Shown: one piece after another, positions 6,159 to 42,730 of the stretch
Layout of the letters: each line of letters begins with the position of its first letter
How positions within the stretch are numbered: the first letter of the stretch is position 1
Assembly (NCBI GenBank): GCA_964560085.1
Contig: CAZLKF010000006.1
Coordinates: 13,398 to 77,397, forward strand
Reading direction: 5' to 3'
From: an uncultured Muribaculaceae bacterium
GTDB lineage: Bacteria; Bacillota_I; Bacilli_A; RF39; UBA660
DNA: 64,000 nt
Notes under the pieces: model-generated
The model's database searches: none
The model's input: the letters and a program-made list of their open reading frames with translations, nothing else
Told to the model about the DNA's origin: nothing
Translations under genes and position numbers: made by a program

Positions 6159-6187
6159 AATTATGATATAATATGTTTGGTGATAAA

Positions 6188-10547: not shown

Positions 10548-10554
10548 GTGTCAA

Positions 10555-12507: not shown

Positions 12508-12559
12508 CATTTTCTTGCAAAAAAGTTACCATTGTATTATAATTTATTTGGTGATTAAA

Positions 12560-14486: not shown

Positions 14487-14524
14487 AAATTTAAAATATA
14501 GTTTAAAAGAATAGCGGGGTTAAA

Positions 14525-20435: not shown

Positions 20436-20451
20436 AAAGGGAGGAATTTTT

Positions 20452-22505: not shown

Positions 22506-22519
22506 AAAGAGGTGATACT

Positions 22520-24231: not shown

Positions 24232-24286
24232 TTGAAATAACGAGAAAAAGTGTTATAATAATTTTATAAGGTAGGGTGGTGATAAA

Positions 24287-24493
24287 ATGAAAGAAGCGTC
24301 AGGAGAAGCAAATATGACAGTAATTACAATCGTTTTAATTGGCTTAGTTGCAGCCGTTGGAGCAGTTTTAATACCAAGATTATTAAATTCAACATCAGCC
24401 CAAGCTTGTTGTTCATCAGCGGGTGGAACATGGACAGGCGGAGCGTGTACAGGACACAATGCTGCAAACTACAATGCATGCGTAAATGGATAA
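24287..24493 (+). CDS. Small pilin-like protein (68 aa) with Cys-rich C-terminal tail; candidate major pilin
   Basis: Strong RBS gggtggtga. Leader MKEASG, hydrophobic MTVITIVLIGLVAAVGAVLIP, tail AQACCSSAGGTWTGGACTGHNAANYNACVNG (4 Cys). Position equals that of flp in Tad loci. Confidence 0.55.
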   Translation: MKEASGEANMTVITIVLIGLVAAVGAVLIPRLLNSTSAQACCSSAGGTWTGGACTGHNAANYNACVNG

Positions 24494-24507
24494 TAAGAAG
24501 GTGAATT

Positions 24508-24966
24508 ATGCGAGAAGCGACCGGACAAGCAAGTCTTATGAATATAATGCTAACAATTATAGGCGTAATTATTCTGCTTTTGGCCGGATCTATCGCATAT
24601 AGTAAAGCATTTAGAGTAAAGAATAAAATAATTGATATAATTGAAAAAAACAACGTTTATGATGGTGATGCTAGGATAATAATTGATGAAGCATTGTTGG
24701 ATATTGGATATCGTTTGCGCGATTCATCAATATCAATGACGGAAATGTGTCATAGTAATGATGGATATACGTTAATTCAAAGTTGGCAATCAAATTACTT
24801 GTATTGCGTATATAAATCAAATAATTCTACTAGTGAAGAATATTATTATAAAGTTGTAACTTTTATGTATTTTGATTTGCCAGTTATTGGTTCTTATATT
24901 AGAATACCTGTATCTGGTGAAACAAAAATTCTTTATCGCGATTCAGATTGGAAAACAGTTGATTAA
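24508..24966 (+). CDS. TadE-like / minor-pilin-like protein
   Basis: RBS aagaaggtga. Leader MREATG plus hydrophobic helix. Paralogous to 25024..25446 (shared AYSKAFRV/SYTKAFKV, IIEK, IGY, and a C-terminal beta-rich region). Confidence 0.5.
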   Translation: MREATGQASLMNIMLTIIGVIILLLAGSIAYSKAFRVKNKIIDIIEKNNVYDGDARIIIDEALLDIGYRLRDSSISMTEMCHSNDGYTLIQSWQSNYLYCVYKSNNSTSEEYYYKVVTFMYFDLPVIGSYIRIPVSGETKILYRDSDWKTVD

Positions 24967-24978
24967 CTGTTTTTTTTT
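24953..24978 (+). terminator. Intrinsic terminator inside the array, right after the pilin-like genes
   Basis: Hairpin aaacagtt-gatt-aactgttt followed by a T-run. The stop codon lies in the loop. Confidence 0.65.
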
Positions 24979-24989
24979 GAACATAAATA

Positions 24990-24998
24990 TGCTATAAT
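24990..24998 (+). promoter_or_regulatory. Extended -10 promoter element (TGcTATAAT)
   Basis: tgctataat lies 26 nt upstream of the TTG start at 25024. No good -35. Confidence 0.4.
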
Positions 24999-25023
24999 TA
25001 AAAAAGAATAGAGAGTGGTTATA

Positions 25024-25446
25024 TTGAAAAAAGCTGTTGGTGGCGTATATATCTATAATTTAGTAATCGTTTTTTTACTAATCGCCTTTGCTTTTGTTTG
25101 TGCTTTACTCAGTTACACCAAAGCTTTCAAAGTCAGCAAAAGTATTTCATCAATAATTGAAAAAAGTTCAGGGTATAATTCAGTTAGTCAAAAAAGCATA
25201 GAGCAATATCTAAACTCCATTGGTTATCAAGTAGTTATAACCGAACCCGCAAAATGCCCAACAAAAAATGGTCGTGCAGCCTCAGATGTTTTTAAGGGTG
25301 TATGTATTTATGAAATTTCTGACAAGAATAATAATAAATATATTAATTATGGAATAGTTTCATATATGACTATCGACTTTCCAATAATTGATTTAATAAA
25401 AGTTCCTGTTTATATAGAAACAGAAAGAATATATGTGTTTAATTAA
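25024..25446 (+). CDS. TadE-like / minor-pilin-like protein (paralogue of 24508..24966)
   Basis: A TTG start at 25024 behind gagagtgg gives leader MKKAVG plus hydrophobic helix, matching the other pilin-like leaders. The ORF-track GTG at 25015 overlaps the RBS. Confidence 0.5.
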   Translation: MKKAVGGVYIYNLVIVFLLIAFAFVCALLSYTKAFKVSKSISSIIEKSSGYNSVSQKSIEQYLNSIGYQVVITEPAKCPTKNGRAASDVFKGVCIYEISDKNNNKYINYGIVSYMTIDFPIIDLIKVPVYIETERIYVFN

Positions 25447-25499
25447 AGGTAAGGAAGCTTGCCTTTTTGACAATTTTAATAAAATTTCTTAAAAAGGAT

Positions 25500-25526
25500 T
25501 TGTAAACAAAAAAAATATGATATAAT
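25500..25526 (+). promoter_or_regulatory. Candidate promoter for the T4SS half (ttgtaa -35, extended -10 TGaTATAAT)
   Basis: ttgtaa, 15 nt, tataat with an upstream TG. Lies 49 nt upstream of the ATG at 25575. Confidence 0.4.
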
Positions 25527-25574
25527 TATCATGAATAATTGTGACGTTTTCATTTTGTTATTGGAGGTGCACTT

Positions 25575-27896
25575 ATGATATTAGGTGTCGATATAGTTTT
25601 TATATGTTTGAAGCTTTTACGTCAAATACTTGGAATTATTGACGGATATATATATACAGCAGCAGCAGAGATATATGGTTTAATGCTAGATATTGCTAGT
25701 GCTGAAGTTTTTACTAAGACAATGATTGATGAGATGGCTGGTCGTGTTTATCAATTGTTGGGTCTTGTTATGCTATTTAAACTTATATTTTCTTTTTTAA
25801 CTTATGTTATTAACCCAGAAGCTATGAATGATAAAACAAAAGGATTTGGCAATATTTTGAAAAAAATTGTCATTTCTTTGGGGTTAATAATTATAACTCC
25901 ATGGGCTTTTACTCAAAGCCGTAATTTACAAACATATATAATACAAGATGGATTGATAGAATATTTTGTTCATGGAACAGCCAACATTGATTCAATTGAT
26001 CCTGGCTATAATTTGATGTTTACTACAGCGAAACTTTTTATTACGCCATATCAATGTGCCAATGAAGCTGAAGGTGGTTGCAGTCAGTGTGCTACTGATA
26101 ATATTTTGCAATCACCAGATAAAACAGGAAAGCCATGCAAAATCTGTGACGGAGAAAAAGCAGATTGGGAGAAACATGTCACAACTTCAGGAGAAGCTGG
26201 TCGATGTGCTTTTGGAAGCACATCTGATGCAAAGGGGCATAATATTACTGCCTATGGGGAACAGCTAATACGAGCAGTTACCCCAGCACCTACTAATCGT
26301 GGACAAGGATATGATTTGATAGCGTTAATGGGATTAAGCGGTTATGGAGAAAATTCTCAATTTTATGTTGAGTTGCGATATCCTCTTATTGGAACGACTT
26401 TAGTTGGTATTGCTATTGGTTATATGTTAATTGTAATGTGTATTGATATTGCAGTTCGTTCTGTCAAATTATCTTTCTATGAGATAATAGCACCAATTCC
26501 AATTATGTCATATATAGGTTTTAAAGATGGAAAAGATGCAATGATTTCGAAGTGGTTTAGTCAGGTTTTAAAAACGTATGCTGACTTGTTTACACGTGTT
26601 TTGGCATTACAATTTTCTGTCGCATTTATCGGAATGTTAATAAAAAATGGTGTCTCACAAAATAGTTTTTTTGTAACATTATTCTTAATTATAGGCGCTT
26701 TAACTTTTGCAAAACAATTACCTAATATTTTAAAGGATATTGGTATTAACTTTGAAGGTGGCGGATTCAGCTTAAAGAAAAAACTTCGTGATGACATGGC
26801 TGGAGGTCGTGCCTTAAATGCAGCTGCAGGAGCAGCTGGAGGTTTGGCTGCTAATGCGGCACACAAGGTTGGTGCGGTAGGAAAAAGGACTTTTGGATTT
26901 GCAAAAGATTTAAAAAATGGTAAGAGTTTAAAAGATTCGTATAAAGATAATTCTTTATTTGCAAAAAGACTTGCAAATGCAGGTAGGGCGTATAAACAAT
27001 CAAAAGCATCTGGCAATAATTTTTTGAAAAGTGCATTTTCTGCTTCCAAGGCAAATACACAATTTACCCGTGATCATGCTTCGGAAAAGGGTGGAAATCT
27101 TGTGGCTGGAGCTTTAAGTGGTGCTAGATCTGGATTGAAAGAAGAAAAACTAGATTTTGGAGCTATTACAAAAGGAGCAAAAAGCGCAAATGCCGGAAGA
27201 ATAGAAAGAGATAACGCATTAGAACAAGGTGCAACAGGAGCAGGTAGAACAATTTCTGGAATTCAACAATCTGTTGGTATAAAAACAGCTGCACAGAGGG
27301 CAGATGCAAGATTTAAAGCTAGGGAAGATTTACAAAAAAGTGTTGATAGTGTTGAAACTGAAATGGATAAAGAAGCAAGAAAACATAATGTTAATATTGG
27401 TACATTTGGTTTTAATGGAACTACTTTAGGAAATGAAGCTCAACATCAAGATTATGGTACGATAATGTCAGCAATTGAAACTGCACGTTCAGCTGGTAGA
27501 ACTAGTGTTAGATTAAGAGATAGTTCAGGAAGCTTTATTTCTGTACCGGATTCTGAATTTGCTCATTTAGAAAAAGAACTTAAAAAGACTATATTTGATA
27601 AAATGGCTGGTGGAAGTGCAACTTCTGGAAGTACAGGAGCCGCATATACAGTTGAAGCTAAAACAAATGCGATGCTTACACAGTTGGATTCTCAGCTAGA
27701 ATATGCTGAACGAAGTGGAAGCATGAATGATATGAGCGGCAGGGCAATTGCTGGAACTGCCCATGGAACAGATTATAAATCAAAAGTCGATGCTATCAAG
27801 AGTGCTAATACAGGCACATATATTGACAAGTCAACTGATAGTTACAGAAGAGCAGTAGCAAATGATGCTAATGCAAAAAAAGATGACAAAAAATAA
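25575..27896 (+). CDS. VirB6/TrbL/TcpH-like polytopic T4SS channel protein with Cys-rich loop and ~370-aa low-complexity tail
   Basis: RBS ggaggtg. 6-7 TMs in the first 400 aa. Loop with CxxC-x15-CxxC. C-terminal half is Ala/Gly/Lys/Ser-rich. Lies directly upstream of the VirB3/VirB4-like genes, as in Gram-positive T4SS loci. Confidence 0.6.
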   Translation: MILGVDIVFICLKLLRQILGIIDGYIYTAAAEIYGLMLDIASAEVFTKTMIDEMAGRVYQLLGLVMLFKLIFSFLTYVINPEAMNDKTKGFGNILKKIVISLGLIIITPWAFTQSRNLQTYIIQDGLIEYFVHGTANIDSIDPGYNLMFTTAKLFITPYQCANEAEGGCSQCATDNILQSPDKTGKPCKICDGEKADWEKHVTTSGEAGRCAFGSTSDAKGHNITAYGEQLIRAVTPAPTNRGQGYDLIALMGLSGYGENSQFYVELRYPLIGTTLVGIAIGYMLIVMCIDIAVRSVKLSFYEIIAPIPIMSYIGFKDGKDAMISKWFSQVLKTYADLFTRVLALQFSVAFIGMLIKNGVSQNSFFVTLFLIIGALTFAKQLPNILKDIGINFEGGGFSLKKKLRDDMAGGRALNAAAGAAGGLAANAAHKVGAVGKRTFGFAKDLKNGKSLKDSYKDNSLFAKRLANAGRAYKQSKASGNNFLKSAFSASKANTQFTRDHASEKGGNLVAGALSGARSGLKEEKLDFGAITKGAKSANAGRIERDNALEQGATGAGRTISGIQQSVGIKTAAQRADARFKAREDLQKSVDSVETEMDKEARKHNVNIGTFGFNGTTLGNEAQHQDYGTIMSAIETARSAGRTSVRLRDSSGSFISVPDSEFAHLEKELKKTIFDKMAGGSATSGSTGAAYTVEAKTNAMLTQLDSQLEYAERSGSMNDMSGRAIAGTAHGTDYKSKVDAIKSANTGTYIDKSTDSYRRAVANDANAKKDDKK

Positions 27897-27913
27897 AAAG
27901 GGAGGAATAAAAT

Positions 27914-28246
27914 ATGAATCAATTTTTAATACCTGCCAATTCAAAAAAATCAATGTTAATATTTGGACTATTCAATGTTACTGATTTGATAATATTTGGT
28001 TCAGGGCTCACAACAACGATGTTGTTGTTGGCTATAATTGGGCCAACTGAAACATTAGATACTTTTATTGTTTTAATACCGCTTTTGGTAACAACACTTT
28101 TAGTTGCCCCTGTTCCTTATTATCACAATGTACGAACAGCAATTAAATCAATATGGACATTTTTCTTGAATAGACAAGTATTTGTATGGAAAGGATGGTG
28201 CATTAGAGATGTCTACAACGACAACGAACAATCAGCAAAGAAGTAA
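27914..28246 (+). CDS. PrgI/TcpE/VirB3-like small two-TM protein
   Basis: RBS gggagg. ...MLIFGLFNVTDLIIFGSGL... then a second TM. Size and position immediately before VirB4 fit the family. Confidence 0.55.
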   Translation: MNQFLIPANSKKSMLIFGLFNVTDLIIFGSGLTTTMLLLAIIGPTETLDTFIVLIPLLVTTLLVAPVPYYHNVRTAIKSIWTFFLNRQVFVWKGWCIRDVYNDNEQSAKK

Positions 28247-30556: not shown

Positions 30557-30582
30557 TATAATTTGAAACGGTGGTGAAAAAC

Positions 30583-33471
30583 ATGGCTTCAAAAGAAAAT
30601 AAATTTGCAAAATCTGAAGGCGGGGCCATGTTGACACCAAATAACAATGCCCAGTCTTCTTTTGGCTTAAATGTTCCTAGAAATCAAAATAATATAGGAA
30701 TGAATAATAGGCAGAATAATGCTGGAGTCGGGCCACAAAATCAAGCTGGTGATGGTGGCGATTCATTAAACAATGGTGAAGAAAATTCACAAAATCAAGG
30801 CGATAATAACAAAAATCAACAGGGAGCATCTACTAATGGTAAGCAAGGTGAAAATAATTCGTCAACAGATGAACTTCAAAAAAAAGCCTTAAAAGAAGGT
30901 GGAAAAGTAGCCTTGATGGCTGCTGGAGCTCCTGCGCCTGTAGCCGATAAAGTAGTTGAAACGGCCGAAAAAACAGGCGCTCTTGATAAGATTAATGCTA
31001 AGGTAAATGAAATTAAAAAAAAGAAACTTTTAAAATTTTTACCTTTATTAAGTGGTCTGCTTCCAATAGCCTTTGGATTTATCATGGTAATTATGGTTTT
31101 ATCTATAGTAATGGCTGCTATGACAGGAGTAGAAAGTACTGCCAAATCGGTAATCAATTTTTTTACTTCGACCTGGGAAGACTTTATTGGGTTATTTTCA
31201 CCAGACTATAAATCAGAAGCAGTATTTTTATCGGCATTGCCGAAAGTCAATGCTAACGCTGACTCTGAAGAAAAAAAGAATATGAGCAAATATTTATCAG
31301 CTATTATGGGGTCTGTATATTATGAAGCTACTACGTTAAATAGCAACGGCACACTTGATACAAGAGAATACGCATTTTATCGTGGACTTTCACGAATTGC
31401 TGAGATTACTTATAATGGGTTAAATTCATCAGCAGGTCGGTTGCGTCCAGAAGTAATAGCTACCAAAATAGCTACATTAAATGAAGAATTACCTTTAGAT
31501 TATATAAAAGACGAGAATGGCAACTATATAACAGACGAGAATGGCAACAAAACGCTAGCTTATGCTGGTACTAATTATGAAAGCGTGCGCAAAGGTCAAA
31601 ACAGCGCTTGGGATAAGATACAAAAATTTGTTAAAGCTTTAAAAGATGATCTGGCAGATTTAGCAAAAGCCGAAAACGGTGGTTATACTTTCGACTTTGA
31701 TGGTGCATTTAAACCTTACTTAGATGAATACATTCAAAAAAATATTATTGATACAAAAATTTCAACAGCAAGTATGGAAGTGTTAAAAGAGAACTTGCTA
31801 ATAACTTGTAATTACTATGAAGAACAATTAAAAACAGCTGCATCAGATGAAGAAACTGCTTCTGCTTCGGGTGAGGACATAATATCTTATTTCGGCTCAA
31901 TTTATGGTGATCAATCGTGTGCAATGTTAACAAAATATGAGCCAAATAATCATGAATTTACAGAGTCACAAGGAATTTCTGATAAAAAAATACATAGTAT
32001 TTATGATGGCGAAGTAATTTATGTCAATCAAGGAATAAACTTATATGATAAATGGGATTCTAAAACTCAAAGATGTCTTTGCGATGGCAAAATATGTGAT
32101 AATTATAATGGATCACAAATTAAAATAAAGTTTGTAGTTGATGAAATTGAATATATAGCAACTTATTCAAATATGGCAACAACGGCAGTCGAAGTTGGCG
32201 ATTCAGTTTCAAAGGGTGAAGTTATTGGCACAGAAGGGAATACTGGTTGTACCAATATAGACAAATTAACTTTTCAACTTACAAGTGAAAGTGGAATAAA
32301 TTATAACACCAATGATTTACTTTATAAATGTAGTAGTTTTGCAAATACTGCTAATACATGTAATTTTAATAATCTCAAAATAAATTTGCTTGATTGCAAC
32401 AATAAAACACTAATTAAGCAAATTCCATTTTATGATTATGTAAAGGAACAAGTATTTGTTAATCATAAGCAAAATCTAAGTGAGATTGAGTATGTAAAAG
32501 CTGCAGTAATCATAAGTGCAAACAATATTCTAAAAAGTGCTAATTATCAAGTTGGTGTTAAAGAATTGGATATTGAAGTTTGTGATTATAAAGAAAAAAA
32601 TATTATTGATTCTTCAATTATTGACAGCAGCATTGATAAAGTACGTGGTCAAATAATGACTTATAATAAAAAAATCGTTGCATTACGTTTTAATGATACA
32701 TGTAATCGAACATTTGAGAACGCAAATGCCAATAGTATATATAATTTAATGTGCAGTAATAATGCATTTAAAATGGCTCAAAATGGGAAAAGTTATACAG
32801 AAATACTTAATACTTATTATCCAAACTACCAATTAGATAACAATTATTGCGTAAATTATGCTGACAACATTAATGAGTACTCTTTAAAAAATGATAAACA
32901 ATATTTAACAAGTGAAACATATACAGATGATGAATATATAAAATTTGAAAAAGAATTAAAAGAGAAAATTAATATGGCTGGTTTTAAGACAAGAGCAGCT
33001 GCAGTGGAAACTGCCCGTTACTTAAGTTTAGGTTTGGATAGTAAAATAGCATATAAAGTAGGTGGAAATTATTTCTACGAAGGCTTGAATAAAAACTGGT
33101 ATGTTGATGGCCTTGATAGTTGTGGCTTTATATCGTGGGTTTTATTTAATGCCGGAGCTAACATTGAACAAAGTATGAATGTTATGCAGTTGATTAGTTC
33201 ACAAAACATAACAGGAAATTTAAAAATAACGAATGAATTTTATAAATATTATGATAAAGTCCAAGTTGGTGATTTCGCTTGGAAAGAAGGACATATTGGA
33301 ATTATAATTGGAAAAAATGATGGTTTGTTATATATTGCGGAAGCAAATAGTAAAGAAGGACTTATAGTAACAACAATAACAGCGTACGGGGAATCATCAT
33401 CAAATTATACACATATATATTTTGCCGATAATTATTATGACAAGACTGGCAATATAACAAGCATGTGGTAA
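30583..33471 (+). CDS. Large multidomain cell-wall hydrolase (PrgK/TcpG/VirB1 analogue): degenerate M23/LytM-like domain plus C-terminal NlpC/P60 domain
   Basis: Asn/Gln/Gly-rich N-terminus, TM LLPIAFGFIMVIMVLSIVMAAM. LytM-like IHSIYDGEVIYV...VGDSVSKGEVIGTEGNTGCTNIDKLTFQL. NlpC/P60 Cys and His contexts GLDSCGFISWV and EGHIGIIIG. Confidence 0.78.
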   Translation: MASKENKFAKSEGGAMLTPNNNAQSSFGLNVPRNQNNIGMNNRQNNAGVGPQNQAGDGGDSLNNGEENSQNQGDNNKNQQGASTNGKQGENNSSTDELQKKALKEGGKVALMAAGAPAPVADKVVETAEKTGALDKINAKVNEIKKKKLLKFLPLLSGLLPIAFGFIMVIMVLSIVMAAMTGVESTAKSVINFFTSTWEDFIGLFSPDYKSEAVFLSALPKVNANADSEEKKNMSKYLSAIMGSVYYEATTLNSNGTLDTREYAFYRGLSRIAEITYNGLNSSAGRLRPEVIATKIATLNEELPLDYIKDENGNYITDENGNKTLAYAGTNYESVRKGQNSAWDKIQKFVKALKDDLADLAKAENGGYTFDFDGAFKPYLDEYIQKNIIDTKISTASMEVLKENLLITCNYYEEQLKTAASDEETASASGEDIISYFGSIYGDQSCAMLTKYEPNNHEFTESQGISDKKIHSIYDGEVIYVNQGINLYDKWDSKTQRCLCDGKICDNYNGSQIKIKFVVDEIEYIATYSNMATTAVEVGDSVSKGEVIGTEGNTGCTNIDKLTFQLTSESGINYNTNDLLYKCSSFANTANTCNFNNLKINLLDCNNKTLIKQIPFYDYVKEQVFVNHKQNLSEIEYVKAAVIISANNILKSANYQVGVKELDIEVCDYKEKNIIDSSIIDSSIDKVRGQIMTYNKKIVALRFNDTCNRTFENANANSIYNLMCSNNAFKMAQNGKSYTEILNTYYPNYQLDNNYCVNYADNINEYSLKNDKQYLTSETYTDDEYIKFEKELKEKINMAGFKTRAAAVETARYLSLGLDSKIAYKVGGNYFYEGLNKNWYVDGLDSCGFISWVLFNAGANIEQSMNVMQLISSQNITGNLKITNEFYKYYDKVQVGDFAWKEGHIGIIIGKNDGLLYIAEANSKEGLIVTTITAYGESSSNYTHIYFADNYYDKTGNITSMW

Positions 33472-33480
33472 GGAGCGTTT

Positions 33481-34188
33481 ATGAAAAAGAAAATAATTGT
33501 ATTATTCATTTTATTACTACTTACTGGATGTAAGGCGAAATATGGATTACAAATTAATTTTGGTGGTTCAGTAATTGAAACAGGTAATATCCTAATTGAT
33601 AAAAATCTTGTTGGACTTGGAGGAACTTCCAATAATACAGACATTTTTCTAGAAGATTTACTTGAAAAATATGGAGCAACTAAATATCGTTTGAAAACTA
33701 AAATTAATGAAACAAATTATATTGGTTATAAATTCTATCATCGCTATAATAATTTAGAATATTACAGTAATCAATCTCCTGCTATAAATCTTCTGTATGA
33801 TTATGTCAACTATAGTAGTTTGGATGGATTTTCAACAATACAAAGTAGTGATAAAAGTAAAATAGATACTTATAATTCTACTGCAAGTGATGTTCCAACA
33901 AAAGTTGAAGAAATAAATATTTCTATAGCATTGCCATATAAAGTGATAGAAAATAATGCAACAACAATAGACCGTGAAAATAATATTTATACATGGGTTA
34001 TAGTACCGGGTGCTGAATCAGAGAAAATAAAATTATCTTATCGCGATAGTGAGCTATTTACAAATAATCCCTTATATTTGGCTAGATATGTAAGCCCGTA
34101 TATATATATAGTAGTTTTGATTGCAGTTGTTGCTATAATAGTAATAATAGTTATAAAAGGAAAAATGCGATATATAAATAAACTATAG
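33481..34188 (+). CDS. Lipoprotein with additional C-terminal TM anchor
   Basis: Lipobox LLLLTGC. C-terminal YIYIVVLIAVVAIIVIIVI followed by KGK. Confidence 0.65.
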   Translation: MKKKIIVLFILLLLTGCKAKYGLQINFGGSVIETGNILIDKNLVGLGGTSNNTDIFLEDLLEKYGATKYRLKTKINETNYIGYKFYHRYNNLEYYSNQSPAINLLYDYVNYSSLDGFSTIQSSDKSKIDTYNSTASDVPTKVEEINISIALPYKVIENNATTIDRENNIYTWVIVPGAESEKIKLSYRDSELFTNNPLYLARYVSPYIYIVVLIAVVAIIVIIVIKGKMRYINKL

Positions 34189-34239
34189 TCTTTAATTTCT
34201 AGGACTTATTTGTTATAATATATCAATTGAGGTGATAAA

Positions 34240-36519
34240 ATGTTTAAATTGACGGCTAATAAAGAAGATGTTATTAAATTCTCGATTTTCTGTGTAGCAA
34301 TGTTCTTGGTTGTCTCAATAATAATAAACAATATTTCTGTTTTTTCAAGTACTGGAGAATTTGCAGGATTTAATCCATTCGCAGTGTTTAGTGATGTAGA
34401 TTCTTTATTGTTAACTTTTGTTGTAACAATTGTAATTCTTCTTAGTATTATTTTTAGTACTTCTTCACAATTTTTTGAAAGAGAAAAAGGCTTTGGATTT
34501 TCATTTTCTAAAAAAGACAAAGGTGGATATTCAAGATGGGCTACTGAGAAAGAATTTAAGGCAGAACTAAAGCACATTTATGCCGATGATAAATCAACAA
34601 GTGCTGCTGGGATACCTTTAATTAATAATGGCCGAGATATATGGATAGATGATGGTGAGTTTCATAATTTAATTATAGGTTCAACAGGTTCAGGAAAAAC
34701 TGAAATGTTGGTTCAACCGATGGTAAAGATTTTAGCCAAAAAAGGCGAATCAATGATTATTACTGACCCTAAAGGAGAAATATACGAAAATAATGCTAAT
34801 GAACTACGCGAAAAGGGCTATAATGTTGTTTTGCTAAACTTTCGTGATCCTCAAAAGGGAAATTCTTGGAATCCTTTAACTTTACCATATGAATTGTATA
34901 AAAGTGGTAATAAAGATAAAGCTAATGAATTATTAGATGATTTGGCAATGAATATTTTGTATGATGAAAAAGCCCAAAATCAAGATCCATTCTGGGAAAA
35001 AACTTCAGCTGACTATTTTACAGGTTTAGCTTTAGGTTTGTTTGATGATGCTGAAGAAAGAGAAATTAATTTAAATAGTATTAATTTAATGACAACTGTC
35101 GGCGAAGAAAAATTAATGGCTTCAACTTATATAAAAGAATACTTTGCTGATAAGGATCCAGCTTCACCAGCTTATGTTAATGTATCTAGTACAATTATGG
35201 CACCAAGTGATACAAAAAACAGCATTTTATCAGTATTTAAACAAAAAATAAAACTTTTTGCGTCTCGTGAAAACTTAAGCGAAATGCTATGTCAAAGTGA
35301 TTTTGATATGAAAGATATAGGACGCAAGAAAACAGCAGTTTTTGTTGTTATTCAAGACGAGAAAAAAACATATCATTCATTAGTTACTATTTTTGTAAAG
35401 CAATGTTATGAAACTTTAATTGATGTTGCTCAAGAAAATGGTGGAAAATTGTCTTATCGAACTAATTTTATCTTGGATGAATTTGCAAACATGCCACCTT
35501 TAAAAGATGTAACAACAATGGTTACAGCAGCGCGAAGTCGAAAAATTCGTTTTAGTTTTATTATCCAAAACTTTGCACAGTTAAGTCAGGTATATGGTTC
35601 AGAAAACGGCGATACAATTAGAGGAAACTGTGGTAATATTATTTACCTAATTAGTAGTGAAATGAAAGCTTTAGAAGAAATCAGCAAGATGTGTGGTGAA
35701 GTTAAGTCTAAGGAAAAAGATAAAACAGCATCAACACCACTTGTTACAGTAAGTGATTTACAAAGATTAAAAATGTGGACAATTATAGTTTTACGTACAC
35801 GTTGTATGCCATTTAAGACAGTTTTAAAACCAAATTATCAAATGGAAAAAGAAAATAAATGGGGTAAGAAATATGAAAAAGCTTCTTATCCTACAAGAGC
35901 GGAAAATAAAGTAAAATTGTTTGATTTAAAAGCTTTTGTTAATAAAAAACGTGAAGAAAAATTAGGATCAACTGGCACTGATACCGGAACAGGTTTTGGT
36001 GGCGGGATGTTTGGCAATAATATGTTTAATTCAAAACCAATTAATCCATTTATGCCTTCTTCACAAAATCAAGCATCGCCTAAGCCTAATACTGATTTTG
36101 ATATAGATGAGATTGTTAAAAAGATAGATGCTAAAATTGCTGAATTAGAAGAGGAAGAGAAAAGGGAAAATCCAATTTCTAATCCAGACAATCAAAGAGA
36201 AAGCAATAATGAAGTTTTACAACCGAAGTCAATTCCAGCAAGTTTTGAACCTACTGTTGTCAATAGACCTGTTGTTGATCCTCAGCCAATATCTAACAAA
36301 GTAGAAGAATTAAAGCCTGATGTTCATAAACAAATAGTGAATACTACTAATGAAGATACTGCTACAGAAAAGTTTGATTATTCAGATGATTATAAAAAGT
36401 ACAATGACGAATTGAATAAAAATCCTCAAATTGACATTATTGAAGAACCTAGTAGTAAGAATTCGGGCAATCCAAGCGATGATGAATTCTTTGATGACTT
36501 TTTTGATGATGGAGAGTAG
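34240..36519 (+). CDS. VirD4/TraG-family type IV coupling protein with long disordered acidic C-terminal tail
   Basis: Two N-terminal TMs. Walker A IIGSTGSGKTE, Walker B FILDEFANMP, IIQNFAQL. The last ~190 aa are low complexity and end in DDEFFDDFFDDGE. Confidence 0.88.
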   Translation: MFKLTANKEDVIKFSIFCVAMFLVVSIIINNISVFSSTGEFAGFNPFAVFSDVDSLLLTFVVTIVILLSIIFSTSSQFFEREKGFGFSFSKKDKGGYSRWATEKEFKAELKHIYADDKSTSAAGIPLINNGRDIWIDDGEFHNLIIGSTGSGKTEMLVQPMVKILAKKGESMIITDPKGEIYENNANELREKGYNVVLLNFRDPQKGNSWNPLTLPYELYKSGNKDKANELLDDLAMNILYDEKAQNQDPFWEKTSADYFTGLALGLFDDAEEREINLNSINLMTTVGEEKLMASTYIKEYFADKDPASPAYVNVSSTIMAPSDTKNSILSVFKQKIKLFASRENLSEMLCQSDFDMKDIGRKKTAVFVVIQDEKKTYHSLVTIFVKQCYETLIDVAQENGGKLSYRTNFILDEFANMPPLKDVTTMVTAARSRKIRFSFIIQNFAQLSQVYGSENGDTIRGNCGNIIYLISSEMKALEEISKMCGEVKSKEKDKTASTPLVTVSDLQRLKMWTIIVLRTRCMPFKTVLKPNYQMEKENKWGKKYEKASYPTRAENKVKLFDLKAFVNKKREEKLGSTGTDTGTGFGGGMFGNNMFNSKPINPFMPSSQNQASPKPNTDFDIDEIVKKIDAKIAELEEEEKRENPISNPDNQRESNNEVLQPKSIPASFEPTVVNRPVVDPQPISNKVEELKPDVHKQIVNTTNEDTATEKFDYSDDYKKYNDELNKNPQIDIIEEPSSKNSGNPSDDEFFDDFFDDGE

Positions 36520-36573
36520 TCGAATATAATTTTAATTTCTTCTTATTGTTCATACAATATATTGGTGAATCAA

Positions 36574-36867
36574 ATGGGAAGAGAAATCACAATTGGTGAA
36601 TTTAGAAAATTAAATAATCTGAATGTTATTGATATTCGTGATCAAAAATCATTTTTAGAAGAACATATTCCTAATTCAACTAATATTCCTTATCTTGAAT
36701 TAATAGTTAATTATCGAAAATTTTTATCCAAAGATAAAATCTATTATCTTTGTTGTGAACAAGGTTTAAGAGGCCGCGATGTTACTGCTTATTTAGGGAC
36801 AAAAGGATATAAAGTTATTAACTTGATTGGTGGATTTGAAGAGTATAAAAACTATAAATACAAGTAA
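36574..36867 (+). CDS. Single-domain rhodanese-like sulfurtransferase
   Basis: Active-site loop CCEQGLRGR (C-x5-R). About 97 aa. Start moved to 36574 behind ggtga. Confidence 0.75.
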   Translation: MGREITIGEFRKLNNLNVIDIRDQKSFLEEHIPNSTNIPYLELIVNYRKFLSKDKIYYLCCEQGLRGRDVTAYLGTKGYKVINLIGGFEEYKNYKYK

Positions 36868-36916
36868 TTTATAGTTTTTTTTTAGAATTTATATTATAAT
36901 GATTATAGGTGATAAA

Positions 36917-37990
36917 ATGGAATACGTAATTGTCGCATTATTAATTGTTTTAATAATTATAAGTGTTTTTTCATTAACAAAAAATATAAATGAATCTAAC
37001 ATTACTGAAAGACTTGGGAAATTAGAGACAAATACAATTAAAGAATTAGGTGATTTTAAAAACGATATTAACAAAAACATTAACGAAGACTTTACTAAAT
37101 TAAATGATCGTATTGAAGAGAGATTAAGAATCATTAATGATAAAGTAAATGAGAGACTAGATCAAAATTTTGAAAAAACTAATAAAACATTCAATTCAGT
37201 ATTAGAACGTTTGTCAAAAATTGATGAAGCTCAAAAGAAAATTGATTTATTATCAAATGATATAGTTTCACTACAATCAGTTTTAACAGATAAGAAATCA
37301 CGCGGAATTTTTGGTGAAGTGAATTTAAAGCATATATTAGTAAGTGTTTTTGGTGAAAATACTAGCCATATTTATCAAATGCAGTATTCTTTTAATAACG
37401 GTACAATTGCTGATTGTGTGTTATTTGCCCCTGAACCACTAGGTTTAATCGCTATTGATTCTAAATTTCCATTAGAAAATTATCAGAATATGGTAGATAA
37501 AAATAATAGTGAATTAATGCGTATCCAAGCTGAGAAAAACTTTAAAATTGATATGAAAAAGCACATTGATGCCATCAGTACAAAATACATTATTCCTGGC
37601 GTAACAACCGATCAAGCTATTCTTTTCTTACCAGCCGAAGCAATATTTGCTGAGTTGAATGCATATCATCAAGACTTAATCGATTATTCATATAAAAAAA
37701 AGGTATGGATTACAAGTCCAACAACTTTAATTAGCACATTAACAACTTTACAAATAATTATGAAAAATATTGAAAGAGATAAATATACAAAGGTCATTCA
37801 TCAAGAATTAAAACTATTAGATGTTGAATTTGGGCGCTATCGTGAAAGATGGGACAAATTGTCAAGAAGCATTGATACTGTATCTAAAGACGTTAAAGAG
37901 TTAAATACAACAACAGATAAAATAACAAAAAGATTTAATTCTATTAATCAAGTTGATGTTGATAAAATAGGAGTAGAAGAAAGAGAGTAA
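36917..37990 (+). CDS. rmuC: DNA recombination protein RmuC
   Basis: N-terminal TM, long coiled-coil, then SRGIFGEVNL...DCVLF...IAIDSKFPLE...ILFLPAEAIF, typical of RmuC. Start moved to 36917 behind aggtga. Confidence 0.82.
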   Translation: MEYVIVALLIVLIIISVFSLTKNINESNITERLGKLETNTIKELGDFKNDINKNINEDFTKLNDRIEERLRIINDKVNERLDQNFEKTNKTFNSVLERLSKIDEAQKKIDLLSNDIVSLQSVLTDKKSRGIFGEVNLKHILVSVFGENTSHIYQMQYSFNNGTIADCVLFAPEPLGLIAIDSKFPLENYQNMVDKNNSELMRIQAEKNFKIDMKKHIDAISTKYIIPGVTTDQAILFLPAEAIFAELNAYHQDLIDYSYKKKVWITSPTTLISTLTTLQIIMKNIERDKYTKVIHQELKLLDVEFGRYRERWDKLSRSIDTVSKDVKELNTTTDKITKRFNSINQVDVDKIGVEERE

Positions 37991-38328
37991 TGAATATGGA
38001 GATTGACAAGGATCAGCTAAAAAAATTGAAAAAATTTATGACTGACTATCCGCAAGAAGCAAAAAAACTTTTAAGAAATGATCCTCAATTATTTCAGGCA
38101 ATTAGTGAGTTGATGTACGACGATGAAGTTCCAGTGGTAAATTTCGGTTCAAATGGTGCTACAGGTAGAGAAATAACTGGAAATCGAAAAACATTAACAA
38201 AACCGGGAGTTCCAGATGGATTATATGTAAATAATGATAAAGGTTTTTCAAATTATTTATTACTAGCCATCCTTGCATTCGCAATTCAATTAGTTATAAC
38301 ACTTATATGTATTTTCTTTTATAAGTAG
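37990..38328 (+). CDS. Hypothetical tail-anchored membrane protein
   Basis: 112 aa with a C-terminal TM YLLLAILAFAIQLVITLICIFF. Start overlaps the rmuC stop. Confidence 0.5.
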   Translation: MNMEIDKDQLKKLKKFMTDYPQEAKKLLRNDPQLFQAISELMYDDEVPVVNFGSNGATGREITGNRKTLTKPGVPDGLYVNNDKGFSNYLLLAILAFAIQLVITLICIFFYK

Positions 38329-38454: not shown

Positions 38455-39246
38455 ATGAAGAAATTAATTGGAATATTGTTTATTATTTTTCCGTTATTTG
38501 TTGATGCTGAATATGTATTTGCAGCACGGTGTGAATATAAATATCCAGGTGAAGATTGTAAATTAATTGTGCATCAAGAAGAAAATGAGGGCATCTCTCC
38601 GGAAATAGAAGGCACATCTATTAATTGCACTCCAGTTGGTTCAGTATATATGTTTAATGATTTTTCATTTTATTCAACAATTTTTTATGACAATAATGGA
38701 AATTTTAAGTGTCCTACCCTTATGGCTACTACAAGAGTAACCGCTGGTCGCACTAATGCAACCTTACTTAGTGATGGAGTAGGTGCTACTCTTTGCCCAA
38801 GAGGTTGTCCACAAGTTGCTGGAGAACTAAAACAAGATGATCCTCCACCAACTCCTGATAAGCCCATCACCCCACCAGATCCATATAAGGGCGTCGAAAA
38901 ATGTGAAAAGGGAACAACTGATGAAATAAACTATATTGTCGCGTGTGGGTGTATTCCTGCAAACGTAGCAGATATTACAAGTAAGGTCTATTATATTCTT
39001 AGAGTAATAGGTCCAATTCTTTTAATTATAGTTGGTGGAGTTGAAATGGCTAAGGCAGTAGGAACCCAAGATGAAAGCGCAATTGAAAAAGCTAAAAAGA
39101 AGCTTGTCAATAAAGCAATTGCAGCAGCTGCTATATTTTTAGTATTTACATTAATAAAGTTAGGAATCAGTATCGTCCGCGATCAAAGTCAAACAGTAGA
39201 ACTTTATGAATGCCTTGAATATTTGTTGAATGGCTATAAAATTTAA
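38455..39246 (+). CDS. Exported protein: variable Cys-containing ectodomain, Pro-rich linker, conserved VirB2/TrbC-like two-TM C-terminal domain (paralogue A)
   Basis: Signal peptide MKKLIGILFIIFPLFVDA. Linker DDPPPTPDKPITPPDP. C-terminal VIGPILLIIVGGVEMAKAV - charged loop - AIAAAAIFLVFTLIKLGISIV. About 90% aa identity to the C-terminus of 41918..42709. Confidence 0.6.
   Translation: MKKLIGILFIIFPLFVDAEYVFAARCEYKYPGEDCKLIVHQEENEGISPEIEGTSINCTPVGSVYMFNDFSFYSTIFYDNNGNFKCPTLMATTRVTAGRTNATLLSDGVGATLCPRGCPQVAGELKQDDPPPTPDKPITPPDPYKGVEKCEKGTTDEINYIVACGCIPANVADITSKVYYILRVIGPILLIIVGGVEMAKAVGTQDESAIEKAKKKLVNKAIAAAAIFLVFTLIKLGISIVRDQSQTVELYECLEYLLNGYKI
38875..39246 (+). repeat. 372-nt diverged direct repeat, copy 1 (3' coding part of paralogue A)
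   Basis: Aligns without gaps to 42338..42709. Most differences are at third codon positions. Confidence 0.85.
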
Positions 39247-39287
39247 AGAAGGTTAGACATTAATCAATGTACAACTTTCTTTTTTTT
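39245..39287 (+). terminator. Rho-independent terminator after paralogue A
   Basis: Stem aaagaaggtt/aactttcttt (one G-U pair), 18-nt loop, T8 run. Overlaps the ORF-track N-terminal extension of rnr. Confidence 0.6.
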
Positions 39288-39344
39288 GTAAAATCACTAG
39301 GAAATCAGTTAAAAATAAATTATAATATTATAGAAGGTGAAAAT

Positions 39345-41456
39345 ATGAAGGAGCAAATTATCAATTTATTAAAAAAGCAAAAGTATGCATTATCTACTCA
39401 AGAAATATACGATGTGTTAAATTTAGATAGTGTGGAAGAATTAAAAAGTTTAATTAAAGAACTTGATCAATTAGAAAAAGATTTATTAATTTATCGCACA
39501 AAAAAAGATAATTATATGCTTTTTCAAGAAAGTCATTTAAAGGCTGGAAAATTCATAAGCAATAAAAATGGTTATGGTTTTGTTGACATCAATGAAACTG
39601 AAGATATATATATATCAAAAACTAATACTAATAAAGCAATTCATGGCGATACAGTATTTGTTGAAGTAATTAATGAAACAGCTGGTAAAAGAGAAGGAAA
39701 GATTGTTAAAATCGTTGATAGATCAGCTAAGGAATTAGTTGGAGAATACAATGTTGTTGAAAACAATGGAATTGTAACTCCAGATGATGATCATTATAAA
39801 TTTAAAATTGCGGTTAGTTTTGAAAATAGTATGGGTGCAATTGATGGACATAAAGTATTAGTAAAAATATTAAACCGTAAATCAGAAAATTTATATAGTG
39901 GAGAGATTGTACGTGTTATTGGTCATAAAAATGACCCAGGGATTGATGTTTTGTCGATTGCATGTAAATATAACCTTGCAGATGAATTTTCATCAGAAAT
40001 AGAGAAAGAATTAGAAAATATTCCATATGAAGTTGATGAAAAAGAAAAAAAGAATCGTCGCGATTTAAGAGAAAAAAAGATTTTCACAATAGATGGAGCT
40101 GATACTAAAGATATCGATGATGCCATATCTCTAGATGTTCTGGATAATGGTAATTATTTACTAGGTGTTCATATTGCTGATGTTAGCCATTATGTAAGTG
40201 AAGCAAGTGCAATTGGCTTAGAAGCAGAGGATCGCGGAACAAGTGTCTACTTAGGTGGCAGAGTAATACCAATGTTGCCTCAAAAGCTATCAAATGGTAT
40301 TTGTTCACTTAACCCTAATACTGATCGTTTAACTATATCATGTGATATGGAAATTGATCTTAGTGGAAATATTGTTAAATCAGACATTTATTTGAGTCTT
40401 ATTAATTCAAAAAAACAAATGACTTATCATGATGTTAATAAAATTTTAACAGAGAATGTTATTCCAGCTGGATATGAAGAATTCAGTGAAACTTTAATCA
40501 AAATGAATGAGTTAGCTCATCTATTAAGAAAAAATAAAGAATCAAGAGGATATATTGATTTTGACATTGAAGAAGCAAAAATTGAGATCGATGAACGTGG
40601 TGAAGCAATTGATATAAAACCGCGAGTTCGTGGTGAAGGTGAAAAATTAATTGAAGACTTTATGATTGCTGCTAATGAAGCGGTTGCTTCAACAATTTAT
40701 TACATGGATTTGCCTTTCTTATATCGTGTTCACGGCACACCATCAGAAGAAAAAATAATGAATTTCACTAAGTTTATTGGAATTCTTGGCTATAAAATTA
40801 ACGGGAAAATTAAGAATATAACACCAAAAACTATTCAGAGAATTTTGGAATCATTAGAAGATAAACCAGAATATGGTATATTGTCACAATTATTGCTTAG
40901 AAGTATGCAGAAAGCCATTTATGATAAGAATAATATTGGACATTTTGGCATAGCAAGTAAGTGTTATACTCATTTTACATCGCCAATCAGAAGATTTCCA
41001 GATTTAACAGTTCATCGCTTATTAAAGACATACTTGTTTGAACAAAAATTAGATGTTAATACTATTGAACGCGTTGAAACAAGATTAGATATAATTGGAC
41101 CACATTCATCTAAAAAAGAGCGAGATGCTTTTGAGTGCGAATGTGAAGTTGATGATATGAAAATGGCTGAATATATGGCAAAACACATTGGTGAAGAGTA
41201 TAATGGTATTGTGAGTGAAGTTTTAAACTTTGGAATGTTTATTCAACTTGATAATTTGGTTGATGGTTTAGTCAGAATAGATAGTTTAAATGAGAGATAC
41301 ATTTTTGATGAAGAAACTTTCACAATTAGAAGCAAGCATGACAAAAGAGGCTATCGTTTAGGTGATAAAGTAAAAATCAAAGTGATTGCAGCTGATAAAA
41401 CAACTCATAAAATTGATTTCGAAATGGTGGAAAAATTAAATGATAGAAATAAATAA
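39345..41456 (+). CDS. rnr: Ribonuclease R
   Basis: RNB-domain motifs IDGADTKDIDDAIS and HIADVSHYV. C-terminal S1 domain (YNGIVSEVLNFGMFIQL). Start at 39345 behind gaaggtga. Confidence 0.92.
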   Translation: MKEQIINLLKKQKYALSTQEIYDVLNLDSVEELKSLIKELDQLEKDLLIYRTKKDNYMLFQESHLKAGKFISNKNGYGFVDINETEDIYISKTNTNKAIHGDTVFVEVINETAGKREGKIVKIVDRSAKELVGEYNVVENNGIVTPDDDHYKFKIAVSFENSMGAIDGHKVLVKILNRKSENLYSGEIVRVIGHKNDPGIDVLSIACKYNLADEFSSEIEKELENIPYEVDEKEKKNRRDLREKKIFTIDGADTKDIDDAISLDVLDNGNYLLGVHIADVSHYVSEASAIGLEAEDRGTSVYLGGRVIPMLPQKLSNGICSLNPNTDRLTISCDMEIDLSGNIVKSDIYLSLINSKKQMTYHDVNKILTENVIPAGYEEFSETLIKMNELAHLLRKNKESRGYIDFDIEEAKIEIDERGEAIDIKPRVRGEGEKLIEDFMIAANEAVASTIYYMDLPFLYRVHGTPSEEKIMNFTKFIGILGYKINGKIKNITPKTIQRILESLEDKPEYGILSQLLLRSMQKAIYDKNNIGHFGIASKCYTHFTSPIRRFPDLTVHRLLKTYLFEQKLDVNTIERVETRLDIIGPHSSKKERDAFECECEVDDMKMAEYMAKHIGEEYNGIVSEVLNFGMFIQLDNLVDGLVRIDSLNERYIFDEETFTIRSKHDKRGYRLGDKVKIKVIAADKTTHKIDFEMVEKLNDRNK

Positions 41457-41886
41457 TAGACAAGCAAAGTTTAATTATGAGATTTTAGAAACATATGAAG
41501 CTGGAATTGTTTTAACAGGAACAGAAATTAAATCCTTGAAAAATGGGAATGCTAATATTAAAGATAGCTATGCCATTATTAAGGAACAAGAAATATATTT
41601 GCTTAATATGCATATTAGTCATTATGAAGAAGGCAATATTTTCAATCATGATGAAACAAGAACGAGAAAGTTATTATTGCACAAAAATGAAATCTTAAAG
41701 TTAAAAAATAAGATAGACTTGAATGGATTTACTATAATACCTTTAAAAATTTATTTTGTAAAAAGACACGCCAAAGTATTAATTGGTTTGGCAAAAGGCA
41801 AAAAATTATATGACAAACGTGAAGATATCAAAAAGAAAGATATTGAGCGCGAAATAAGAAAAGATTTTAAAGAAAGATTAAAATAA
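41440..41886 (+). CDS. smpB: SsrA-binding protein SmpB
   Basis: NRQAKFNYEILETYEAGIVLTGTEIKSLKNG...HISHYE...RTRKLLLHK is typical of SmpB. 17-nt overlap with rnr. Confidence 0.92.
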   Translation: MIEINNRQAKFNYEILETYEAGIVLTGTEIKSLKNGNANIKDSYAIIKEQEIYLLNMHISHYEEGNIFNHDETRTRKLLLHKNEILKLKNKIDLNGFTIIPLKIYFVKRHAKVLIGLAKGKKLYDKREDIKKKDIEREIRKDFKERLK

Positions 41887-41917
41887 AAAATTCTAATAAT
41901 ACTGAAAGGATTTAGAT

Positions 41918-42709
41918 GTGACAAAAATGGTTAGTTATGCAATGGACAATTTGAAAAAAAGATTATACATGATGATATTTGTACTATTATTAAGTTTTTT
42001 TTCGTGTATAACTATGGCAAAAGGAGAAACATATTATCGTTATTATTATGAAGGCGATAATGTGATAGTGACTTCCGAAACTTTATCAGCAAATGTATCA
42101 GTATATGAAACAGGAACCAATTTATGCAAAATAGGTGACTATTACATTCTTAATCAATCTTACGTAGATGAGTGTCCCGAATATATAAGCTATTGGAATA
42201 ATGGTAATTATGAATATTTTGTTGTTAAATTAGAAACCGCAAAAAATGCTTCAGATGACTATGGAGCATTTTATTGCCTTTCTTCTGTATGCAATCCTAC
42301 TAATAATAATCCTGGTACGGATACTCCTATTATTTCGCCAGATCCATATAAAGGTGTGGAAAAATGTGAAAAAGGTGTAACTGATGAGATAAATTACATT
42401 GTGGCGTGTGGGTGTATTCCAGCAAACATAGCTGATATTATGAGTAGAGTTTATTATATCTTGAGGGTAGTAGGACCAATTCTTTTAATCATAGTTGGTG
42501 GAATTGAAATGGCAAAAGCAGTAGCAACTCAAGATGAAAGTTCTATCGAAAAAGCCAAGAAAAAACTTGTTAATAAAGCAATTGCAGCAGCTGCCATATT
42601 TGTAGTATTTACAATAATAAAGCTAGGCGTTAGTATTGTTCGTGATCAAAGTCAAACAGTAGAACTATATGAGTGCCTTGAGTATTTATTAAATGGTTAT
42701 AATATTTAA
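41918..42709 (+). CDS. Paralogue B of the exported protein with VirB2/TrbC-like C-terminal domain
   Basis: Signal/anchor LYMMIFVLLLSFFSCITMA. Unrelated N-terminal ectodomain. C-terminal 123 aa differ from paralogue A at about 12 positions. GTG start 7 nt after aaagga (uncertain). Confidence 0.6.
   Translation: MTKMVSYAMDNLKKRLYMMIFVLLLSFFSCITMAKGETYYRYYYEGDNVIVTSETLSANVSVYETGTNLCKIGDYYILNQSYVDECPEYISYWNNGNYEYFVVKLETAKNASDDYGAFYCLSSVCNPTNNNPGTDTPIISPDPYKGVEKCEKGVTDEINYIVACGCIPANIADIMSRVYYILRVVGPILLIIVGGIEMAKAVATQDESSIEKAKKKLVNKAIAAAAIFVVFTIIKLGVSIVRDQSQTVELYECLEYLLNGYNI
42338..42709 (+). repeat. 372-nt diverged direct repeat, copy 2 (3' coding part of paralogue B)
   Basis: See copy 1. The two copies bracket rnr-smpB. 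Confidence 0.85.
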
Positions 42710-42730
42710 GAAAGCTTAGCTTTCTTTTTT
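42708..42730. terminator. Bidirectional terminator between convergent genes
   Basis: Hairpin aagaaagc-tta-gctttctt followed by tttt. Overlaps the last codons of the minus-strand FtsW-like gene. Confidence 0.55.

Follow-up and report, generated by a model that had tools for sequence, protein, structure and literature searches.

We identified two paralogous membrane proteins, A (38455..39246) and B (41918..42709), in a 64-kb window of DNA (the whole stretch analysed here, 64,000 nucleotides (nt) of contig CAZLKF010000006.1), and these proteins share a C-terminal module with two hydrophobic helices. We consider it fairly probable that this module is the VirB2 equivalent, a PF18895-like subunit, of the chromosomal machine encoded at 20.0-36.5 kb of the window, in which a Tad-like pilus system is combined with a type IV secretion system (T4SS). 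A and B are paralogues within a large and almost unannotated family of membrane proteins of Erysipelotrichaceae-like Bacilli, and the strongest evidence for the module as a T4SS subunit is its genomic context. On balance, we think that in the lineage represented by the window these genes were relocated to the 3' end of the array, and that they acquired signal peptides and variable heads and ended up on both sides of the genes rnr and smpB.

Genomic context of the module genes

As an unbiased sample, we retrieved 34 metagenome loci by motifs of the module alone, half of which (17 of 34) were too short to judge. Homologues of VirB6, VirB3 and VirB4 are encoded immediately downstream of the module in 13 of the 17 informative loci (L017, L020, L021, L024, L025, L026, L029, L033, L036, L039, L040, L042 and L043), and the other four (L019, L037, L044 and L047) have at least 4 kb of downstream sequence without a T4SS gene. 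At L015 and L016, the composite array of the window is orthologous gene by gene (70-73% identity for CpaF, 74-76% for VirB4 and 62-67% for VirD4), with short module genes placed after the prepilin block and ahead of the VirB6-like gene. At L011/L012, two module genes directly precede genes for the VirB6-like and VirB3-like proteins, the split VirB4, a hydrolase and VirD4, and no Tad block lies within 10 kb. More generally, no fewer than nine further metagenomic lineages keep the composite array gene for gene, and some lineages have only the Tad-like or only the T4SS half next to module genes. In these relatives, the module gene has the position expected of a VirB2-class pilin gene, within a T4SS operon beside virB3, virB4 and virB6 homologues.

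In the window itself this canonical slot is empty. Where orthologous arrays hold a partner gene of ~320 amino acids (aa) and one to four module genes, the window has a 128-nt intergenic gap (25447..25574), and hidden Markov models (HMMs) of the module found A and B alone across the 64 kb; the nearest module gene follows VirD4 on the same strand at a distance of 2 kb. A preliminary description of this DNA had proposed that A and B supply a component missing from the upstream array, and the module genes of relatives, which fill the slot before the VirB6-like gene, bear this out. The ~320-aa partner, a protein without a Pfam match, is near-universal directly upstream of in-array module genes, occurring in 27 loci (L016, 8572-9543; L015, 9007-9948; L011, 8964-9935; and 24 others); neither the window nor its three closest relatives encode a counterpart.

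The position of this partner bears on another reading, in which the module belongs to the Tad-like half of the machine, for example as a membrane platform or anchor for a Flp-type pilus. Composite arrays place the module genes right after the prepilin-like open reading frames (ORFs) and the ~320-aa gene. Moreover, L037 and L047 keep a CpaF-like block upstream, the ~320-aa gene and the module with VirB4 absent within 10 kb, and continue downstream with an LtaS-like sulfatase or tsaE-tsaB-tsaD-ftsY, and L044 and L049, in which the flanks are shorter, have the ~320-aa gene, the module and an LtaS-like gene. However, at L011/L012, L025, L026, L042 and L043 module genes stand directly before VirB6-VirB3-VirB4-VirD4 and the 10 kb upstream lack a CpaF homologue, the module genes of the window lineage follow VirD4 at a distance of 14 kb from the Tad block, and the sole family-level similarity of the module is to a T4SS pilin family. 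We consider a role in the Tad-like half unlikely.

A further group of loci lies away from T4SS genes altogether. L008-L010, L013 and L014 carry four to five bare module genes (at ~8.7-11.9 kb in each) between a sortase gene with a ~250-aa ORF and recD2, with no T4SS gene within 10 kb, and these arrays adjoin genes for capsule (Wzz/CpsB) and surface Ig-like proteins; at L006, a single module gene stands after RNase Y and before the gene for a 696-aa N_methyl/Big_13 protein. Such settings would suit a generic two-transmembrane (TM) anchor that displays surface proteins and whose proximity to T4SS genes is historical, as would the finding that variable heads occur at either end of the module: among 99 non-redundant module proteins in the loci, 19 have an N-terminal head and a C-terminal module, like A and B, and three have the module at the N-terminus. 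Conversely, the remaining 77 are short proteins (<190 aa) consisting of a bare module, and an anchor would hardly be needed where there is nothing to display. Within the module, conservation is highest in the cytoplasmic loop, which argues for a conserved cytoplasmic partner, and the T4SS adjacency of 13 of 17 unbiased loci also speaks against this reading. We regard the generic anchor as improbable. The preliminary description had named wide occurrence of the paralogues in genomes without the T4SS array as a point against its reading; judged by the flanks, part of the wider family is located apart from T4SS genes, for example the sortase-adjacent arrays and the Tad-only loci.

Affinity and predicted fold of the module

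In Pfam, PF18895 (T4SS_pilin) was the top match of both A (E = 1e-4, 22.7 bits) and B (E = 2e-4, 21.7 bits), being the sole match of A and accompanied in B by a chance-level match to Srg (E = 0.13). The alignments run nearly end to end, covering positions 5-68 (A) and 5-69 (B) of the 71 in the profile, and correspond to aa 171-234 of A. As a control for composition, none of eight reversed family sequences matched PF18895 at E <= 1, and the best chance matches of reversed controls to any family had E values of ~0.005-0.05. Since reversed sequences of the same TM composition give no such signal, the signal of PF18895 is real, if modest. It extends through the family: PF18895 ranks first for 21 of 32 close members (best E 3.8e-5) and for 24 of 49 distant members (best E 2e-6). 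One distant relative, P0098, which the module profile found at E = 1e-19, reaches 26.7 bits, just above the gathering cutoff of 26.6, and bears a precomputed PF18895 label. Three of the 49 distant members also match NCBIfam NF045849 (Mbov_0395 family pilin-like conjugal transfer protein; best E = 4.6e-6). A, the paralogue covered by the NCBIfam scan, had no match at E <= 0.1 and so lies below the NF045849 cutoff.

When compared with 1.84 billion representative proteins, the module profile matched 6,456 at E <= 1e-3, 1,411 at E <= 1e-10 and 54 at E <= 1e-30, the last of these constituting the close family. The ~6,450 protein clusters reached in this way are nearly all unannotated or hypothetical, and the distant matches are mostly 100-175 aa long, hardly more than the module itself. 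Complete lack of similarity to T4SS pilin families, which the preliminary description had named as grounds for abandoning its proposal, is not what was found, the similarity to PF18895 lying below the cutoff. Its assignment of a VirB2/TrbC-type two-helix domain stands as regards the hairpin and the sub-cutoff PF18895 affinity, and is not supported as regards TrbC/VirB2 (PF04956) or solved pilins, to which no match was obtained.

The module consists of a Cys motif (C-x13-C-x-C-IP), TM helix 1, a basic loop, TM helix 2 and a short third helix with a conserved Cys. AlphaFold2 (AF2) modelling of the module alone, with 34 aligned sequences, gave a confident model with a mean predicted local distance difference test score (pLDDT) of 83 and helices at residues 29-63, 67-102 and 105-119; hydropathy and AF2 agree on a hairpin with a basic loop, as expected from the two hydrophobic helices around a charged loop that had been noted at the outset. 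A and B each have an N-terminal signal-peptide-like segment in addition to the two hydrophobic helices. A basic inter-helix loop (5 K/R vs 3 D/E) between acidic outer flanks fits the positive-inside rule, and the predicted topology, with the loop in the cytoplasm, both termini outside and export by a signal peptide, is that of a VirB2-class pilin. In the close family, the motif DE..I.KA..KL..K of the cytoplasmic loop and four Cys of the module are invariant. Two positions stand out in the superfamily as a whole, a Cys ahead of helix 1 with at least 90% conservation and an invariant Cys that follows helix 2. We infer that an extracellular disulfide may tie the two ends of the hairpin together.

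Several results weigh against a VirB2-type subunit, in addition to the loci described above that lack VirB4 or any T4SS gene. By score, A and B fall below the gathering cutoff of PF18895, and P0098 is the only family member known to exceed it, barely. PF04956 is unmatched by A and B even at E <= 1, and by all 81 family members examined at E <= 0.01; three sequence profiles (A2, A4 and A5) compared with the PDB matched no solved pilin. Foldseek searches of the PDB with models of full-length A and of the module gave no match at E <= 0.001, the top matches being generic TM hairpins (for example, ATP synthase subunit c and HtrII) with E values above 1; the fold is too simple for Foldseek to tell a pilin from another TM hairpin. 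The disulfide staple and the assembly steps proposed below are themselves inferred. Finally, each of the three paralogues attributable to the genome (A, B and a probable third, P0002) has a head, 140-280 aa in length, the 64-kb window showed no bare "major pilin", and a fibre built of head-bearing subunits alone may be sterically difficult.

The same evidence might be accommodated by a non-pilin T4SS accessory, either an entry or surface-exclusion factor or a VirB6-associated gating subunit, whose heads would set specificity. Exclusion proteins are small inner-membrane proteins that work via VirB6/TraG-type partners, and the module gene stands immediately upstream of the VirB6-like gene; several variable alleles occur per genome, and the comparison with solved pilin structures is uninformative. 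On the other hand, exclusion factors are usually poorly conserved, whereas the module is recognisable over ~6,450 clusters and aligns consistently end to end with the PF18895 profile, and its arrays, with as many as five paralogues, are reminiscent of those of pilin genes in Patescibacteria. We attach little probability to an accessory role, and the VirB2-equivalent subunit is the reading that we carry forward.

A constant module with divergent heads

Both genes were confirmed as plus-strand ORFs where the preliminary description had placed them. A (38455..39246) encodes 263 aa, or 272 aa from an alternative ATG at 38428, and comprises a signal peptide, a Cys-rich head with six Cys, a Pro-rich linker (DDPPPTPDKPITPPDP) and the conserved module. 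B (41918..42709) encodes 263 aa from a GTG and comprises a signal peptide, an unrelated head with four Cys beyond the signal-peptide-like segment, and the module. The module HMM recognises them at E = 6e-57 (A) and E = 2e-56 (B), and in a BLASTP comparison of the two (E = 6e-79) identity is confined to the C-terminal half.

At the DNA level, the module forms a gap-free direct repeat on the plus strand (38875..39246 and 42338..42709) of 372 nt, that is, 123 codons and the stop, with 84.6% nt identity, of which a repeat search detects a core of 300 nt at 83%. The 420 nt 5' of the repeats are 33% identical between A and B, which is random for the AT-rich DNA here. The modules differ at exactly 12 of 123 aa (90% protein identity), in agreement with an earlier manual count of about 12. 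NG86 counts of 42.5 synonymous and 14.5 non-synonymous differences correspond to a synonymous divergence (dS) of 0.90, a non-synonymous divergence (dN) of 0.052 and a dN/dS of 0.058. With differences this predominantly synonymous, the module of both paralogues is under purifying selection, as had been suggested. Given a dS of ~0.9, the duplication of A and B, or the last conversion event between them, is old; the longest perfect run common to both repeats is 23 nt.

The heads behave differently from the module. They are unrelated to each other and have no Pfam match, and that of B has no BLAST relative among all of the proteins and loci fetched. In the AF2 model of full-length A, mean pLDDT is 56 and the head has low confidence (pLDDT < 50). 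The preliminary picture of unrelated, Cys-containing heads joined by Pro-rich linkers is accurate for the heads and for the linker of A, and less so for that of B, which is less Pro-rich. Its idea of variable heads on a common module agrees with the high head variability across the family.

Relatives, in which module genes occur in arrays of two to five, indicate how this arrangement may be maintained. Module proteins within a genome are 97% identical across rnr-smpB in L002, 98% between the two copies of L004 and 97% between adjacent copies of L001, compared with mostly 45-60% between genomes; the orthologous post-smpB copies of L001 and L003 are 98% identical. In L002, L001 and L004, module DNA is 95-100% identical between paralogues, with a perfect run of 159 nt in L002, and beyond ~360 nt from the stop codon no more than random identity is left. 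Near-identical module DNA with so sharp a boundary points to gene conversion, or to replacement of the heads, on a module that stays constant.

The genome sampled by the window probably holds a third paralogue elsewhere. The unitig graphs of three public runs (X1-X3) contain, over 38919-39287, an alternative sequence at genome depth that is ~93% identical to the module of A and the 41 bases after it; the substitutions in it are those of P0002, a protein of 406 aa. The genome thus carries several paralogues, two in the window and the probable P0002. Contigs of four public runs, which would miss rare variants, contained no in-register joint of A to B; the A-B joints listed in them have sides of 20-33 nt and look like noise.

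The rnr-smpB bracket

The direct repeats enclose, at the coordinates first reported, rnr (RNase R; 39267..41456) and smpB (41440..41886), which overlaps the end of rnr, both on the plus strand. Their orthologues in L001 and L002 carry OB_RNB/RNB/S1 domains and PF01668 (SmpB), respectively; rnr may start at 39345, where there is a better ribosome-binding site. In a consensus scan, no terminator-like site was found in the A-rnr or smpB-B gaps, and a terminator-like hairpin (42708..42726, plus strand) lies directly 3' of B, where it is common to B and a convergent ftsW/rodA gene. A, rnr, smpB and B are probably co-transcribed.

The location of these genes, which had been called odd for T4SS accessories, is instead a conserved feature of the lineage, seen in four genomes. 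L001, L002 and L003 share the order VirD4, rhodanese, RmuC, small ORF, module genes, rnr, smpB, module gene and ftsW (minus strand), with four, three and two module copies, respectively, and neither side of rnr-smpB is ever without a copy. In all four close-family genomes, module genes lie 2-3 kb downstream of VirD4. Because the bracket is kept in the window and in L001, L002 and L003, it is ancestral to the lineage and not an oddity of one genome. Among ~185,000 species genomes, the close family was found in only two metagenome-assembled genomes (uncultured Bacilli/Firmicutes). The transfer-messenger RNA (tmRNA) gene, whose product is the partner of SmpB, lies at 55827-56169, 14 kb downstream of smpB, and is followed by a metallophosphoesterase gene and not by an integrase, so that there is no island at the tmRNA gene.

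The composite array and its host

The array of the window (20013-36519) joins a Tad-like pilus block head to tail with a monoderm T4SS block, and all of its genes are co-oriented on the plus strand. The Tad-like half (20013..25446), identified from Pfam matches and ORF translations, is 57-77% identical to related arrays and comprises DUF5411 (20013), a CpaB/RcpC-like protein (20422), a CpaF-type ATPase (21396), two TadB/C-like membrane proteins (22520 and 23425) and three small ORFs with prepilin-like N-termini (24287-25446). One of these ORFs encodes 68 aa, beginning MKEASGEANMTVITIVLIGLVAAV, with a Cys/Gly-rich tail. No prepilin peptidase was recognised within the window array. The DUF5411/CpaF part has been computationally predicted as a pilus-like operon in Clostridia (PMC9523054).

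The T4SS half follows the empty slot. A VirB6-like polytopic protein (773 aa, from 25575) and a VirB3-like small membrane protein (110 aa, from 27914), both within 25575..28246, were assigned from weak NF045848/NF045890 matches together with position and orthology. VirB4 is split into an N-terminal part (195 aa, 28182-28769; NF045975 VirB4_plasma, E = 1e-14) and an ATPase part (595 aa, 28769-30556; AAA_10/P-loop_TraG), whose stop and start overlap at 28769. Because the two parts are adjacent in 18 related loci, the split reflects two true genes or a programmed event and not an assembly error. An M23 peptidase (966 aa, from 30571), which is a cell-wall hydrolase recognised by Pfam, and a lipoprotein-like protein (235 aa, from 33481) occupy 30571..34188; the position of the former is kept in related arrays, where it is filled by SpoIID/CHAP or LysM-M23 variants. 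The block ends with a VirD4-type coupling protein (34240..36519; PF02534, E = 3e-53, with TrwB_AAD_bind and TraG-D_C). Genes for a rhodanese, RmuC and a 112-aa tail-anchored protein (36562..38328, plus strand), identified by Pfam and by synteny in L001, L002 and L003, link VirD4 to A in all four genomes of the lineage. RmuC belongs to a DNA recombination protein family, and its location beside the coupling protein of a relaxase-less T4SS is suggestive. Upstream of the array (6173-16402) lie large surface-protein genes, encoding Bact_surface_Ig-like (681 aa), BspA-type leucine-rich repeat (650 aa) and Big_2/NAGPA (625 aa) proteins.

The window is part of the chromosome of a spore-forming Firmicute, as indicated by downstream genes for the germination protease (GPR), SpoIIP and a penicillin-binding protein; its GC content is ~29%. 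The sequence occurs in metagenomes of bioreactors, manure and wastewater, and the sole source label on a distant module relative is "Erysipelotrichaceae bacterium". None of the ORFs scanned over the 64 kb showed a relaxase or integrase domain, so that, within this window, the T4SS is chromosomal and without an associated relaxase. With neither domain present and housekeeping synteny kept, we rejected a mobile element in the window. A phage or holin origin of the module proteins was likewise rejected, as A and B have no PHROG match and no relative in 2.9 million IMG/VR viral contigs.

Comparison with known systems

The closest parallel is found in Patescibacteria, in which arrays of 2-11 PF18895 pilin genes occur by relaxase-less chromosomal T4SSs, with a pilin gene near virB4 in 58% of the genomes that have both (Quinonero-Coronel et al. 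2025, PMC12102498). VirB2-like pilins of the Patescibacteria T4SS are attributed to Wang et al. (2023), as cited in a December 2025 review (PMC12857230). According to that review, VirB2 and VirB5 are absent from Gram-positive T4SSs with Patescibacteria as the sole exception, and the T4SSs of Patescibacteria are unique among monoderms in their potential for conjugative pili (PMC12857230). The system described here shares with them a monoderm host, a chromosomal T4SS without a nearby relaxase, the monoderm-type complement of VirB3, VirB4, VirB6, VirD4 and a wall hydrolase, several pilin-like paralogues per genome alongside a type IV filament system, and the proximity of pilin-like genes to virB4 (58% there vs 13 of 17 loci here). 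The differences are also considerable. The host is a spore-forming Firmicute as opposed to an ultrasmall epibiont; A and B are sub-cutoff for PF18895 and carry 140-aa ectodomains led by a signal peptide; paralogue modules have 85-97% nt identity, whereas the Patescibacteria pilins average ~25% protein identity; and the module has conserved Cys that the predicted topology places outside the cell. Moreover, the T4SS here is fused with a DUF5411/Tad-like system, and its VirB4 is split into two ORFs.

With the TrbC/VirB2/TraA pilins (PF04956), the module shares a predicted architecture in which a signal peptide precedes two hydrophobic helices, joined by a short basic loop and with the two ends on the outside, as well as, in its relatives, a gene beside virB3/virB4/virB6 homologues. 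Unlike the pilins of the solved T-pilus, F-pilus and R388 structures, to which it has no detectable sequence similarity, the module has an additional third helix and a Cys motif. To our knowledge, large N-terminal heads are not a feature of classical conjugative pilins. The Mbov_0395 family (NF045849) of integrative and conjugative elements in Mycoplasma likewise comprises small pilin-like membrane proteins of monoderm T4SSs, and the N-terminal part of the window VirB4 matches the companion model (NF045975) noted above; the system here differs in being chromosomal, with no sign of a mobile element. Type IV pilus minor pilins offer a further parallel, in that a constant polymerisation module carries variable outward domains in several paralogues beside the machine. 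This is an analogy only, since fold and machinery are unrelated and a type IV pilin has just one helix, at its N-terminus, and is led by a class III signal peptide. Our literature searches found no paper describing the Mbov_0395 family and no description of the module family, its heads or the composite array.

Proposed mechanism and implications

We hypothesize that the head is exported by Sec via the signal peptide and that the hairpin then enters the membrane, its basic loop facing the cytoplasm and its two ends the exterior. A disulfide would join the Cys before helix 1 to the Cys after helix 2, in a possible analogue of the head-to-tail cyclisation of TrbC/VirB2. The VirB4/VirB6 machinery would pull these hairpins out of the membrane and assemble them into a wall-spanning fibre or into a collar around the channel, for which the M23 hydrolase could open the wall. 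In such a structure, the module would form the shaft and the outward heads might provide alternative binding specificities, much as in minor pilins, with gene conversion keeping the assembly module compatible between paralogues as the heads diverge. A more specific proposal, which we regard as tentative and rather doubtful in its entirety, is that a widespread, chromosomal and relaxase-less machine of Erysipelotrichaceae-like Firmicutes, in which a Tad-like pilus system is fused with a monoderm T4SS, builds a VirB2-type fibre of disulfide-stapled hairpins, some of them with exchangeable heads that gene conversion shuffles for target specificity, and that these bacteria are, next to Patescibacteria, a second monoderm group with conjugative-type pili.

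A family of PF18895-like hairpins sits in the T4SS arrays of ordinary walled, spore-forming Firmicutes of gut and digester environments. If its members are pilin subunits, monoderm T4SS pili would not be peculiar to epibionts, and the manner in which a T4SS crosses a thick wall would become testable in a much broader group of organisms. The head-bearing paralogues would then represent surface specificity that is varied by recombination on a constant assembly module.

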